A DNA stretch of 64,000 nt from Clostridia bacterium (GCA_017509785.1 JAFWOT010000012.1:1544-65543); one strand, 5' to 3'; positions 57,506-62,028 are shown, counted from the first letter of the stretch. The notes: generated from the letters alone by a model not told the origin. Program-made: numbers and translations.

Positions 57506-57534
57506 TTGACATTTCCGATCGGAAGCTGTATAAT
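57506..57534 (+). promoter_or_regulatory. Consensus sigma-A promoter of the tRNA operon
   Basis: TTGACA (57506-57511), a 17-nt spacer, TATAAT (57529-57534). Confidence 0.7.
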
Positions 57535-57561: not shown

Positions 57562-57638
57562 CGGGGTGTGGCGCAGTCTGGTAGCGCACGTGCTTTGGGA
57601 GCATGGGGCCGGAAGTTCAAATCTTCTCACCCCGACCA
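57562..57638 (+). tRNA. tRNA-Pro (UGG)
   Basis: Manual cloverleaf. Acceptor CGGGGTG/CACCCCG. Anticodon loop TTTGGGA. T-loop TTCAAAT. CCA is encoded. Confidence 0.85.
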
Positions 57639-57644
57639 TTATGT

Positions 57645-57719
57645 GGCCTCGTGGTCAAGCGGTCAAGACACCGCCCTTTCACGGCGGTAACAGGAGTTCG
57701 ATTCTCCTCGAGGTCACCA
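57645..57719 (+). tRNA. tRNA-Glu (UUC)
   Basis: Near-identical in its core to B. subtilis tRNA-Glu (TGGTCAAGCGGT.AAGACACCGCCCTTTCACGGCGGTAAC). Anticodon loop CTTTCAC. CCA is encoded. Confidence 0.85.
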
Positions 57720-57727
57720 TTTTTTAA

Positions 57728-57804
57728 GGGCCTTTAGCTCAGTTGGTCAGAGCGGTCGGCTCATAACCGATTGGTCCGGGGTTCGAGTCCCTGAAGGCCC
57801 ACCA
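57728..57804 (+). tRNA. tRNA with CAU anticodon (Met, or lysidine-modified Ile2; it resembles ileX-type)
   Basis: Acceptor GGGCCTT/AAGGCCC. Anticodon loop CTCATAA. The TTGGTC variable region resembles tRNA-Ile2. CCA is encoded. Confidence 0.8.
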
Positions 57805-57821
57805 CTATAATTTAATAACGC

Positions 57822-57898
57822 GGCCCGGTAGTTCAGTTGGTTAGAATGCCAGCCTGTCACGCTGGAGGTCAGGGGTTCGAGCCCCCTTCGGGTCGCCA
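57822..57898 (+). tRNA. tRNA-Asp (GUC)
   Basis: GTAGTTCAGTTGGTTAGAATG D-arm. Anticodon loop CTGTCAC. CCA is encoded. Confidence 0.85.
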
Positions 57899-57911
57899 TC
57901 TTTGCAAATTT

Positions 57912-57987
57912 GCTGGTGTAGCTCAATCGGCAGAGCAGCTGATTTGTAATCAGCAGGTTGACGGTTCAAGTCCGTCCACCAGCTCCA
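57912..57987 (+). tRNA. tRNA-Thr (UGU)
   Basis: Acceptor GCTGGTG/CACCAGC. Anticodon loop TTTGTAA. CCA is encoded. Confidence 0.85.
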
Positions 57988-57999
57988 CCGGCATAATAT

Positions 58000-58084
58000 G
58001 GACGGGTTCCCGAGCGGCCAAAGGGAGCGGACTGTAAATCCGTTGTCACAGACTACGATGGTTCGAATCCATCCCCGTCCACCA
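58000..58084 (+). tRNA. tRNA-Tyr (GUA), long variable arm
   Basis: Acceptor GGACGGG/CCCGTCC. Anticodon loop CTGTAAA. Variable arm TGTCACAGACTAC. CCA is encoded. Confidence 0.85.
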
Positions 58085-58265
58085 AATCCAAGTCCCCGCG
58101 CGGCGGGGGTTTGGATTTGGCAAATGATGGAAGGGATTCGAAGGGCGGTAGTGAATGACCGTCCGGTGGACGGTCAGAGCCGCCCCGGGCTGCCCGAAGG
58201 CAGACGAATCCATCCCCGTCCACCAAATCCAAGTCCCCGCGCGGCGGGGGTTTGGATTTGGCAAA
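58064..58265 (+). repeat. 61-bp direct duplication of the tRNA-Tyr 3' end plus its downstream hairpin
   Basis: CGAATCCATCCCCGTCCACCAAATCCAAGTCCCCGCGCGGCGGGGGTTTGGATTTGGCAAA occurs at 58064-58124 and again at 58205-58265. The copies are separated by 80 bp. Confidence 0.9.
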
Positions 58266-58277
58266 GGCCAAAGCTTC

Positions 58278-58364
58278 GCGGGCATGGCGGAATTGGCAGA
58301 CGCGTACGGTTCAGGTCCGTATGGGGGCAACTCCATGGAGGTTCAAGTCCTCTTGCCCGCACCA
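58278..58364 (+). tRNA. tRNA-Leu (CAG), long variable arm
   Basis: Acceptor GCGGGCA/TGCCCGC. Anticodon loop TTCAGGT. CCA is encoded. Confidence 0.85.
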
Positions 58365-58832
58365 AACAAAAAGCACCCATCGGGTGCTTTTTGTTTGGTC
58401 CGAGAAACCTGCGTGAACCTCCATCGAGAACGCTCGCGTTCTCAATACGCAGGCGCGCGCAAGTATGCAAACGGTCAACAAGCTGCCTGCGTCATTGGAG
58501 AGTTCAAGTCCTCTTGCCCGCACCCATCGGGTGCTTTTTGTTTGGTCCGAGAAACCTGCGAGAACCTCCATCGAGAACGCTTGCGTTCTCAATACGCAGG
58601 CGCACGCAAGTATGCAAACGGTCAACAAGCTGCCTGCGTCATTGGAGAGTTCAAGTCCTCTTGCCCGCACCAAACAAAAAGCACCCATCGGGTGCTTTTT
58701 GTTTGGTCTGAGAAACCTGCGTGAACCTCCATCGAGAACGCTCGCGTTCTCAATACGCAGGCGCGCGCAAGTATGCAAACGGTCAACAAGCTGCCTGTGT
58801 CATTGGAGAGTTCAAGTCCTCTTGCCCGCACC
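58341..58832 (+). repeat. Tandem array (3 units of 161/147/161 bp), each unit ending in a copy of the tRNA-Leu T-arm/acceptor 3' segment
   Basis: GTTCAAGTCCTCTTGCCCGCAC occurs at 58341, 58502, 58649 and 58810. Each unit also carries the hairpin AAACAAAAAGCACCCATCGGGTGCTTTTTGTTT, truncated in unit 2, and a ~100-nt conserved segment. Confidence 0.9.
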
Positions 58833-59262
58833 TCTGTAAATACCTCATTTGTCTACCACATGAATAGGGCGAACAGACATAAGCGAAAAGCTACCAAAGC
58901 CGCCGAATATCAAACAGCGTACTATACCGATGATGATGAAAAATAGATGAGATTCATACTGTGGCCATGCTGCCGGACAACAGCACCGGCGGACAAGCCG
59001 CTGAAGGAGTGCTTGCCGGTAGGACAGTATGAAAACTGAAATGATCACAGTATCAACACTATTGAAAAAAGGCTGTATATAGAGTAACATATACTACAGT
59101 ATCCGCATCACGGTGCGATACGCTTGATTTCTTGTCGCACAGGTGAAAAAACGGCGGGTTTTGCTCAAAACTCAGCTAACAAGCTCGGGGTGAAGGTCAA
59201 AGCACCGTCAAACACGTTATGGATACTTTCCGGCGGGAAAGTCGTAATAGACGGAGGAAAGA

Positions 59263-60375
59263 ATGAAAAGGCTTTTGTCGATCATTATCGCAGTGCTCAC
59301 ATCCATCGCTATGCTCTCCGGCTGCAGCCGCAGAAGAGGCGCCTACGAAAGTACTCAGCCGCCGGAGACTTTCTGCCCTGCCACGCAGGAAGCCGCTGCC
59401 GGGATCACCGCAGAGACAACTCCCGCTCTAACGCCGGAGCCCACGCCGGAAGCTGCCGCTGAGGCAACGGAGGAGCCTCTCGGCCGCTTTGCTTTTCAGC
59501 CCAAGGTCTGCTCAGTATTTATGCATGAGGTCTTCGGTGAAGACATGTGCGAAGCATGGTACAATCTTGTGGACGCAGTCATGGCGGGGGAGAACACCTT
59601 TGCATGCAGGGACCAGCATACCTACGACTGGGTTATGGGGCAGTTCCCGAGGCTCTGCTTTCCGGTCTTCGTTGAGCTGATCGACCTCGCGGAGGATCGT
59701 GAGCATTCCGTTATCGACGGCGTTGCGAGCTTTACCTGGCGAGTTTCGCCGGAGGAAGCCGCTTCCGAGATCGAAGAATTCGCGGAGCTGATCGAAGAAA
59801 TTCTTAACGAAACGATGAGGACAGATTATTCGGATTTCGAAAAGGCGGTCGCGCTGTATGATTATTTCTCGAATACCTATGAATACGATTATGAAACCTA
59901 TGATAAGATGTTCGAAACATATGTGGACTATACGACGACTTATCGCCTGTTGACGACAGGAACGGGTATCTGCAGCGAGATCGCTCCGGCGTATTCCTAC
60001 CTTATGATGCAGGCCGGCGTTGAAGCGACGACTATGATGGGGCCGGACCATGAATGGAGCTATATACGCATCAACGGTCACGATTACCACATCGACCCGA
60101 CCTATCTGCTAAGCAACAAAGGGGCGCTGACCTATTTTATGATGACTGACGATCAGCGTGAGTACCACGGATTCAGCAAAGACGATTTTACAATAACGTC
60201 AAATTATTCGGATGATAACCCGCACCCCGATTACACAGCGGACGACGACACCTTCTCAAAGCTGTGGGATTACAGCTTCGAGGAGCTTATTCCGAATGAA
60301 AACATACTGCGCTGCTGGAAATATACTGAGGGCTGGGAGAAGGAGTATCTTGAATTCGACTACAGCGGTTTTTGA
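59263..60375 (+). CDS. Transglutaminase-like (Cys-His-Asp) lipoprotein
   Basis: Lipobox MLSGCS. Core GTGICSEIAPAYSYLMMQAGVEA...DHEWSYIRINGHDYHIDPT. Confidence 0.7.
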   Translation: MKRLLSIIIAVLTSIAMLSGCSRRRGAYESTQPPETFCPATQEAAAGITAETTPALTPEPTPEAAAEATEEPLGRFAFQPKVCSVFMHEVFGEDMCEAWYNLVDAVMAGENTFACRDQHTYDWVMGQFPRLCFPVFVELIDLAEDREHSVIDGVASFTWRVSPEEAASEIEEFAELIEEILNETMRTDYSDFEKAVALYDYFSNTYEYDYETYDKMFETYVDYTTTYRLLTTGTGICSEIAPAYSYLMMQAGVEATTMMGPDHEWSYIRINGHDYHIDPTYLLSNKGALTYFMMTDDQREYHGFSKDDFTITSNYSDDNPHPDYTADDDTFSKLWDYSFEELIPNENILRCWKYTEGWEKEYLEFDYSGF

Positions 60376-60719
60376 TCGCCGCGTGCCGGTTGGAAGGCAG
60401 CCGGCAGTGCTATCCGTTCGGCCGGGCGTGCCGCAGATCGGCCGGGTACTTGACATCATCCGCAGTGAAAGAAGCGTAAGGCGCAGAACGATCAAGGGTG
60501 AGCTGTACCACGTCGCGCTCTACACGGATGCGTCCGGAAATGACATGCATTTCATCTTCGGAGGTGGCAGTTGGACAACAGCACCGGCGGACAAACCTCT
60601 GAAGGAGTGCTTGCCAGTAAAAGGGTAAGCGGAGTGATGAAAGCAAGCGGAACTGAATCGTTTACAAAAAAAGTCGCTTAATCATATCGATAAATCGGAG
60701 CTTGTAAGGAGGCGATAAT

Positions 60720-61067
60720 GTGGATGGCTGTAACGAGGATTTTTGGAAAGCACTTGATGAATTGGTAAATAAATCGGAAATCGTGATCGACAGGCCAAGA
60801 GGCTCTGCCCATCCCAGATTCCCGAACTTCATCTATAATGTCGACAATGGATATTTGAAAGATACTGCCTCTATGGATGGTGCGGGAATTGATGTATGGG
60901 TTGGAAGCGGTGATAAAAAGATCGATGCCATCATGTGTATCGTTGATTTGATGAAGAGAGATTCAGAGATCAAAATACTGGTAGGCTGTACGGAAGAAGA
61001 AAAGCTGGAAGTCTACAAAACACATAACGAAACGCAGTATATGAAAGGCGTTTTGATACGTCGTTAA
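60720..61067 (+). CDS. Inorganic-pyrophosphatase-like small protein
   Basis: DRPRGSAHPRFPNFIYNVDNGYLKDTASMDGAGIDVWV resembles the PPase family core. GTG start lies 7 nt after AAGGAGG. Confidence 0.5.
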   Translation: MDGCNEDFWKALDELVNKSEIVIDRPRGSAHPRFPNFIYNVDNGYLKDTASMDGAGIDVWVGSGDKKIDAIMCIVDLMKRDSEIKILVGCTEEEKLEVYKTHNETQYMKGVLIRR

Positions 61068-61262
61068 ATTCCAGTTTAGAGAACTGAATCTTTGGCGTGC
61101 TTTTCGCAAGTTTACCCTTAAATAGTGCATCTTTTATATGAACACTACAACAACAAAGGCGCCCACAGGGGTGCTTTTGTTATTATGCGAATGGTTATGT
61201 TTACACGGCAGGGATGGCGTGCTATAATCATATCGACAAATCGGTATTTATAGGGGGCAAGC

Positions 61263-61787
61263 ATGATGCTGGAATTACTGAAAGTGAGATTTTCAGAACA
61301 AAAGGAACTTCATCCGGATTTGGAATGGTCTGAGGTGGAGCAGAGGCTGCGCGATTTTCCTGCTGCCATCACGATTTTGCAAAAAATGGAGGAAACCGGC
61401 GGTGAACCTGACACCATAGGGTATGACGTAAAGACGGGAAAACTCATTTTCTGCGACTGCGCAAAGGAATCGCCCGTCGGGCGAAGAAGCCTGTGCTATG
61501 ATGAAAAGGCGTTGCATAGCCGCGCTAAAAACCCGCCGTCAAGCAGCGCCGAGCGGAAAGCGAAAGAGATCGGCATATCGATGATGACGGAGGAACTCTA
61601 TCGTCGACTGCAAAGTCTCGGTTCATTTGATTTGAAAACGTCAAGCTGGATCGCTACGCCGGAGGATATCCGCAGCAAGGGCGGCGCGTTGTTCTGCGAA
61701 CGGCGCTATGATACCGTTTTTACTTTTCACAACGGAGCGGATTCCTACTATTCTGTGCGCGGATTCAGAGGGTATATTCTTGTCTGA
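61263..61787 (+). CDS. DUF4256-family protein
   Basis: MEETGGEPDTIGYD...FCDCAKESPVGRRSLCYD...KTSSWIATPEDIRSKGGALFCERRY...HNGADSYYSVRGFRG matches my memory of DUF4256. Confidence 0.6.
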   Translation: MMLELLKVRFSEQKELHPDLEWSEVEQRLRDFPAAITILQKMEETGGEPDTIGYDVKTGKLIFCDCAKESPVGRRSLCYDEKALHSRAKNPPSSSAERKAKEIGISMMTEELYRRLQSLGSFDLKTSSWIATPEDIRSKGGALFCERRYDTVFTFHNGADSYYSVRGFRGYILV

Positions 61788-62028
61788 ACACCGGACTCAA
61801 CGATAAAACCCCTGCAATTTATGGGACTTAAACATTGACAAATTCCAGTTTGTCGATGTACAGACGGCATTTTATGCCTACCTTAAAAGGATTATCGTAC
61901 CGATTGCCGACCTTTGACATCATAGAGACCTCTTTTGTCTTACGCTTCAAAAGAGGTTTTCTTGTTGTTCTAACCGCGTGAATATGGTATAATCATCTCA
62001 ACAAATCGAGAGCTGCGGAGGATAAAAC

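Follow-up and report, generated by a model that had tools for sequence, protein, structure and literature searches.

In E. coli K-12, the tyrT and tyrV loci carry trailer repeats, each with a copied tRNA 3′ end as its last part. Six occurrences of the final 19 nt of tRNA-Tyr are found in these loci, and Tandem Repeats Finder returns units of 178 bp that are present in 3.1 copies after tyrV, with one unit located between two tRNAs. A role in the stringent response has been proposed for these rtT repeats; to our knowledge, both their origin and their role have been unclear since 1991.

Copies of the 3′ end of a target gene also delimit integrative elements. The microCIMEs of streptococci are gene-less, att-bounded elements of 130-220 bp that are found at the 3′ ends of their target genes, where they form tandems with ICEs or IMEs, and in S. 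salivarius the most decayed elements are those located farthest from the target gene (PMC7563491). In Dehalococcoides, tandem islands have a 20-bp repeat from the ssrA 3′ end at their boundaries, with insertion in the T-loop (PMC3146451).

Here, a window of 64,000 nucleotides from an uncultured Clostridia bacterium was analysed, in which a similar arrangement is found in and behind a tRNA operon. All coordinates refer to the whole window, and the features of the operon and of the array lie on the plus strand. The host lineage consists of uncultured Clostridia in gut, bovine and sheep metagenomes, and its nearest relatives with a genome are Clostridia MAGs from ruminants (water-buffalo rumen). 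The operon (57562-58364) comprises seven tRNA genes (Pro, Glu, Met, Asp, Thr, Tyr and Leu(CAG)) and is preceded by a sigma-70 promoter at 57506-57534, in which TTGACA and TATAAT are separated by a 17-nt spacer (12 of 12 matches). The first six genes span 57562-58084, with tRNA-Tyr(GTA) at 58000-58084, and tRNA-Leu(CAG), the target gene of the array, is located at 58278-58364.

The last 23 nt of tRNA-Leu(CAG), GTTCAAGTCCTCTTGCCCGCACC, are referred to below as A. This sequence lies at 58341-58363 in the tRNA gene itself and recurs as exact copies that start at 58502, 58649 and 58810, in accordance with the preliminary description of this locus. Four matches were thus observed versus none expected (100 shuffles), and no additional copy with up to three mismatches was found on either strand of the window. 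Identity with the tRNA runs slightly upstream of A, with two differences (CATGGAG-GTTCA in the tRNA versus CATTGGAGAGTTCA in the units). As the repeat begins within the T-loop, it agrees with the T-loop sublocation class of tRNA-targeting integrases that Williams reportedly distinguished in 2002.

The spacing of the A copies (161 or 147 bp) divides the array into three units of 161, 147 and 161 bp, as described before, and the periods of 147 and 161 bp were also returned by Tandem Repeats Finder across 58373-58832. Each unit is built from a terminator hairpin (T), a structured segment of about 100 nt (x) and a copy of A. The T hairpin has a stem of 18 bp, takes in the ACCA of the tRNA and has a U-rich 3′ arm; in units 1 and 3 it reads ACCAAACAAAAAGCACCC-ATC-GGGTGCTTTTTGTTTGGT, with arms that are 100% complementary. 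Unit 1 (161-bp period) occupies 58365-58524, with its T hairpin at 58361-58399 and its A copy at 58502-58524. Unit 2 (147 bp, 58525-58671) has lost the 5′ arm of T through a deletion of 14 bp, in line with the shortening of this hairpin noted earlier, and retains a residual short terminator at 58520-58534, followed by TTTTTGTTTG. It differs from unit 1 at three positions, two of which it has in common with the single unit of sister strains. Unit 3 (161 bp, 58672-58832) ends with the last A copy at 58810-58832 and differs from unit 1 by a T for C at 58706 and at 58798. The units are gene-less, as the open frames present are spurious ones that run across tRNAs and repeats. Two such frames, 57998-58711 (237 aa) and 58155-58724 (189 aa), span tRNA-Tyr, tRNA-Leu and the repeats. 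The 189-aa frame, which is listed as a gene where these contigs have been annotated publicly (L001, 2893-3462), is almost certainly spurious.

Related loci are denoted by L numbers here; further ones came from scanning metagenomes with the unit-specific junction. Altogether, four diverged unit types can be distinguished (those of the window, L021, L023 and L025), all of 161-167 bp and with the junction TTGGAGAG+A in common. The number of units varies from zero to three, and their presence or absence is precise at the repeats. Locus L008, with a YceD that is 64% identical, has the same seven tRNAs and no unit: tRNA-Leu follows tRNA-Tyr after 9 nt, and a native terminator, unlike T, is located directly after tRNA-Leu. 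It represents the empty state for both the Tyr and the Leu units. Within the species, with a flank that is 99.1-99.3% identical, three Leu units are present in the window, L001, L002 and L010, and one is present in L011, L013 and L029-L031; related lineages carry one or two. The units are thus also found outside the strain, in sister strains as well as in related lineages; lack of conservation outside the strain had been named in the preliminary description as part of the evidence against its proposal, which had also called for a search for copy-number variation and an empty site among relatives. Distal A copies decay, as seen in L025 (GCCGGCACC), L011 (CTAATCC) and also L023. A covariance model of the units (R1) recovered most of the known ones, missing unit 2 and the first unit of L025, and revealed no new units other than a hairpin remnant at 61146 in the window.

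Folding of x together with the A that follows it predicts a three-way junction, in which GAGA...TGAACCTCCA, from the 5′ part of x, and the copied T-arm (TGGAGAGTTCA...TCTT) form the helices P0 and P1. These helices enclose two hairpins, P2 and P3, and leave the tail GCCCGCACC(A) single-stranded. In unit 1, the 5′ strand of P0 is located at 58401-58405, the strands of P1 at 58414-58423 and 58496-58506, the inner hairpin P2 at 58426-58443, and P3 is formed by 58447-58454 with 58485-58492. This architecture is the minimum-free-energy fold in three of the four x types behind tRNA-Leu; in the L023 type it is not the minimum-free-energy structure. The T for C at 58798 in unit 3 yields a G-T pair in P3. 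As the covariance-model alignment had mixed in palindrome matches on the minus strand, the pairs were counted by hand. Seven compensatory (double) changes were found across the unit types, four in P2 and three in P3, together with two G-T pairs that are workable on the plus strand. The minus strands, of x at Leu as well as at Tyr (see below), fold about as well, so the data do not separate an RNA from palindromes at the DNA level.

All segments for which pairing had been predicted in the preliminary description are present, i.e. CCTGCGT (58408-58414), ACGCAGGC (58447-58454), GCCTGCGT (58485-58492) and the inner hairpin at 58426-58443. The first and the third of these had been considered to pair with the second in a mutually exclusive manner. 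This holds for one half only: the 3′ pairing, which is P3, is kept by compensatory changes, whereas the 5′ alternative is not conserved, with seven of seven positions pairing in the window type and four of seven in L021, L023 and L025. A riboswitch-like or attenuator switch was rejected, since the two helices are not both conserved among the unit types. A pseudo-tRNA origin of x is likewise unsupported: an nhmmer profile of the unit scored 22.4 versus 20 bits in the comparison with genuine tRNA, a gain of only about 2 bits beyond the A part. As a separate observation, TGAACCTCCAT in x of the window type (58414-58424) is perfectly complementary, over 11 nt, to the T-arm of the genuine tRNA-Leu, ATGGAGGTTCA (58334-58344), and needs a bulge to pair with the A copy of its own unit. 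In L021 it is the A copy of the same unit to which the complement is perfect; each x can thus pair upstream or downstream.

A second unit is located within the operon, between tRNA-Tyr and tRNA-Leu. A 61-nt repeat consisting of the last 21 nt of tRNA-Tyr (A_Tyr, 58064-58084) and a hairpin (T_Tyr, with arms at 58082-58099 and 58103-58120) is present at 58064-58124, and a second exact copy is found 141 bp downstream, at 58205-58265. Between them lies a structured segment of 80 nt (x_Tyr, 58125-58204), so that the tRNA-Tyr unit (58064-58265) has the form of a 141-bp insertion of the hairpin, x_Tyr and a copy of A_Tyr. For x_Tyr, a similar three-way junction is predicted in the versions of both lineages in which it occurs, closed by the pairing of GGATTCG with CGAATCC of the next A_Tyr. 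The fold has a predicted energy of -51 kcal/mol in the window (z = -4.2), and the same fold is obtained for L021 (z = -4.9). A compensatory change, GGGCGG/CCGCCC to GGACGG/CCGTCC, can be read from the two sequences. In the species of the window, the 141-bp unit is present in the window and in L011/L029 and absent from L030 and L031, in which one A-T is left. In the second lineage it is present in L021 and absent from L022 and L026, where AATAT and tRNA-Leu directly follow tRNA-Tyr.

Several arrangements at tRNA-Leu point to repeated accretion at this site. In L023, one unit type is followed by a partial unit, of which the hairpin and the 5′ part resemble the L025 type. To this truncated micro-unit, a remnant of the first ~35 codons of a serine-recombinase gene (RVAAYVRASTEEDE, L023:415-519) is fused directly. 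The order in L025 is a TnpV-carrying element, a unit of the L025 type, a unit of the window type (97% identical to that of the window), A with one SNP, and a native terminator, which is the one that directly follows tRNA-Leu in L008. Such mixing of unit types in tandem is an arrangement that local duplication cannot produce. In L024, L022 and L026, tRNA-Leu is followed by one unit, A, an island of 4.1 kb, another A and a remnant of the native terminator; the cargo of the island includes a flavin reductase and an Fe-ADH, and no integrase or recombinase is among its genes.

The same holds for the window itself, in which ~3 kb of accreted cargo (58833-61887), without a recombinase, separates the array from the native flank. 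This block carries a transglutaminase-core lipoprotein (59263-60375), small ORFs, a DUF4256 protein and the remnant of a T-type hairpin on the plus strand (ACAACAACAAAGGCGCCC..., 61146-61184) that is 89% identical to the T of the L025 unit. It ends at a decayed A copy at about 61888-61917 (plus strand), behind which the native tRNA-Leu terminator is found (61918-61965, plus strand), the one located immediately behind tRNA-Leu in L008. Decayed A, native terminator and promoter region together occupy 61888-62027, with the terminator displaced 3.1 kb downstream, so that the sequence from 58365 to about 61917 has been inserted between the tRNA and its original flank. The block has moved from lineage to lineage, as the identity of L021 and L022 rises from 90.6% upstream of tRNA-Tyr to 99.2% from tRNA-Leu onward. 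Similarly, the region of the transglutaminase-core lipoprotein (59484-60574 of the window) is 96.5-97% identical to L022 and L024, versus 84-90% for the housekeeping flank of that lineage, which looks like a recent horizontal exchange of cargo beside tRNA-Leu.

The genes downstream of the array had been said to lack an integrase. That is correct for the window, but sister strains carry a large serine recombinase of 566 aa at this very place, the gene of which starts about 60 bp past the last copy of the tRNA end. It belongs to an element of 13.4 kb that is inserted exactly at the end of the last A (L011:5350-7516; L033:1-13430). Besides the recombinase (with DUF4368), the element encodes ParB_N, VapE-like and NikA/MobC proteins, an S24 repressor, a sigma-70-like protein, ABC-transporter genes and TnpV. 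Its unoccupied attachment site is present in the window at 58826-58859 on the plus strand, ...GCCCGCACC/TCTGTAAATACC, where the slash marks the junction (the site can also be written as GCCCGCACC/TCTGTAAATACCTC). The left junction in L011 reads GCCCGCACCA/TAGCGAG and the right junction in L033 reads GATTCGCACC/ACTGTAAATACC, or, as also given, GATTCGCACC/ACTGTAAATACCTC. The junctions share only about 7 nt, CGCACCA, with the site. The element therefore does not explain the 23-nt repeats, and its serine recombinase was rejected as the maker of the A repeats; this unrelated element uses the end of A as its own attB. Two inverted copies of the tRNA-Leu 3′ end are located on the minus strand of L033 (13623-13648 and 13716-13736), about 200 bp past the right end of the element; the window lacks both. 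Look-ups of TnpV and of a 66-aa ORF returned short contigs or nothing.

A parent element of the units was sought in several collections. Four pattern scans of viral contigs (with the junction, the x core, the left arm of the L025 type and the x_Tyr core) gave no matches each. BLAST searches with the unit gave only terminator-like matches of 30 nt in jumbo phages among the phages, and nothing among plasmids. Neither a full-length element with the halves of x at its ends nor a recombinase linked to A repeats was found in viral contigs, phages, plasmids or the nhmmer search of all loci.

The array probably consists of tandem microCIME-like minimal integrative remnants, the att site of which would lie in the T-loop; the locus as a whole is a busy hot spot of integration. 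Stacked att-site scars at tRNA-Leu had been suggested before, and this suggestion gains support from the precise A boundaries, the zero to three copies, the mixed tandems, the A-bounded elements in the neighbourhood, the displaced native terminator and the serine-recombinase element at the same place. According to this model, A, which reaches from the T-loop of tRNA-Leu(CAG) to its CCA end, would be the recombination core of integrative elements. Each element would bring its own A and its own terminator T; as the element carries its own A, the tRNA would be kept intact and one A would be added per insertion. A unit of 147-167 bp (T, x and A) would be the remainder when only the two att arms are kept, with x representing these arms, and would be the smallest piece recognisable by a recombinase supplied in trans. 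This would account for a length and an architecture that stay constant from one diverged type to another. The polymorphism in presence and absence and the transfer of the block would be indirect evidence for excision or mobilisation in trans. The A repeats would have been made by a T-loop-specific recombinase, and copies could be gained, lost and mixed through recombination of A with A, either site-specific or by unequal homologous crossing-over. The three near-identical copies in the window may stem from amplification or from re-insertion.

Compared with the streptococcal elements, which are the closest precedent at the DNA level, the Clostridia units are likewise gene-less and, at 141-167 bp, fall within the range of 130-220 bp. 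They have direct repeats on both sides that match the 3′ end of the target exactly (here 23 nt), occur in tandem with other integrated elements at the site (the L024 island and the element remnants in L023 and L025) and vary in copy number and composition from strain to strain. Moreover, the 3-kb block in the window ends at a decayed A. The differences concern the target, which is here the T-loop and 3′ end of a tRNA in Clostridia, and the parent, as no ICE or IME with matching arms and no integrase was found for the Clostridia units in the collections searched. In addition, the micro-units adjoin the target gene, unlike the situation in S. salivarius, where the most decayed elements are the farthest (PMC7563491), and their structure is conserved with compensatory changes. 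The Dehalococcoides islands are similar in their tandem order, their repeat of ~20 bp from the 3′ end of a tRNA-like gene, their insertion point in the T-loop and the CIME-like lack of an integration module in some of them (PMC3146451). The L011 element resembles them in its large serine recombinase and a ParB-domain gene on the reverse strand beside the left junction; it differs in that it crosses over at the CCA end, with about 7 nt shared. Micro-sized units are not mentioned in the passages of PMC3146451 considered here.

Several points argue against a reading of the array as remnants. Neither a parent element nor a recombinase linked to A was found in the searches above, and the serine-recombinase/TnpV element does not account for the 23-nt repeats. 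The micro-units are positioned next to the target gene, and units 1 and 3 are nearly identical (see below). There are also the seven compensatory changes in P2 and P3 and the z values of -4 to -5 for x_Tyr; on the basis of these predicted folds, a conserved structure would fit a selected RNA or a single-stranded DNA at least as well as att arms.

The best-surviving alternative, compatible with an origin as remnants, is that the units specify a trailer RNA of the RtT type with a selected role, which we consider possible though rather unlikely. Such an RNA would be made by read-through from the strong tRNA promoter. Its x+A part would fold, closed on the T-arm, into a structure whose unpaired end, ...GCCCGCACC(A), imitates a tRNA 3′ end, and tRNA-processing enzymes would release it as an RNA of ~125 nt, which might, for example, titrate factors that recognise 3′ ends. 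The E. coli tyrT and tyrV repeats have the same anatomy. Both are trailer units of tRNA operons, arranged in tandem, with each unit ending in a copy of a tRNA 3′ end that starts inside the T-loop, and both show about 3.1 copies in tandem behind the last tRNA and one unit between two tRNAs. The annotated E. coli RttR is exactly x+A. The Rfam RtT consensus (RF00391), with a closing helix of GGGGAAGGAU (internal) and AUCCUUCCCC (copied), inner hairpins and a free CCACCA tail, has the same architecture as the fold predicted here, in which an internal segment and the copied T-arm form the closing helix and the acceptor/CCA tail remains free; this fold is obtained for three of the four Leu types and for both x_Tyr versions. 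The seven double compensatory changes and the plus-strand G-T pairs point in the same direction.

Nevertheless, the Rfam RtT model gave no match in the window between 57000 and 59400 at E up to 1, while as a positive control four E. coli units were matched at 133-138 bits. With all Rfam families, again at E up to 1, only the tRNAs were found, and no RtT, ribozyme or riboswitch. The Clostridia units also differ from those of E. coli in the absence of any sequence match, in their length (141-167 bp versus 178 bp), in the strong terminator hairpin, including CCA, with which each of them begins, and in their host (uncultured gut/rumen Clostridia versus Enterobacteria). Judged by the predicted folds, the window units appear to be built like RtT units, but they are not members of the RtT family. 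Further points against an RNA with a selected role are the intrinsic terminator that opens each unit, with no promoter found inside the array, the equal folding of the minus strand, the deviating L023 type, the lack of units in a relative and in sister strains and the decay of distal A copies. Weak evidence for transcription comes from runs labelled RNA, in which assembled contigs cover x_Tyr, the unit 1/unit 2 junction and 58727-58859 and the protein-coding flanks have zero depth; these contigs are shallow, DNA may have been carried over, and the label of two of the runs is GENOMIC.

An unlikely, more general proposal is that the Leu and Tyr units of Clostridia and E. coli RtT together form one unrecognised class of minimal elements bounded by tRNA 3′ ends, in which the structure itself is selected. 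A single strand, of RNA or DNA, would fold into a three-way junction closed on the copied T-arm, and the structure could be either a folded recombination substrate like integron attC or a released mimic of a tRNA 3′ end. Selection on the structure itself would explain why structure and length are conserved and sequence is not.

It is improbable that the array arose purely by local tandem duplication of the tRNA 3′ end and its trailer through unequal crossing-over, without any mobile element. Units 1 and 3 differ by two SNPs only, the array ends exactly in A, as amplification of A-x-A would have it, and the E. coli repeats are also present in 3.1 copies according to Tandem Repeats Finder. As a complete account, local duplication is largely refuted by the mixed unit types in tandem, the window-type unit in another flank context (L025), the A-bounded cargo islands, the horizontal transfer (99.2% versus 90.6% identity) and the clean presence or absence of the Tyr unit in two lineages. 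Given the near identity of units 1 and 3, the local triplet could be a product of simple unequal crossing-over, which possibly was the last step, from one copy to three.

That a single unit was inflated to three by mis-assembly of a repeat is very improbable: all assemblies concerned are short-read ones and Logan contigs are only 1.2-1.8 times as deep over the unit as over the flanks (these contigs break within the repeats, and their depth is uninformative on copy number), but SNPs and a 14-bp deletion set the three units apart, the same order occurs in independent assemblies and studies (L001 and L002, from two other metagenome assemblies, are identical to the window across the 1.9 kb compared, and in a third study L012 backs units 1-2, up to its contig end, and L003 the last unit and flank), and a contig of another run spans the unit 1/unit 2 junction.

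In conclusion, this tRNA operon of uncultured gut/rumen Clostridia is a hot spot for more than one system: the proposed elements that would recombine at the T-loop, and an element with a serine recombinase and TnpV that enters at the CCA end. The locus offers a clean series of natural states, from an empty site via one unit and three units to mixed tandems and cargo islands. Arrays of this kind break short-read assemblies and seed spurious ORF calls such as the 189-aa "gene". The link to RtT is the most interesting lead, as the likeness in architecture to rtT suggests that repeats of the RtT type may have been left by integrative elements as micro-remnants, or may form a separate structured class.
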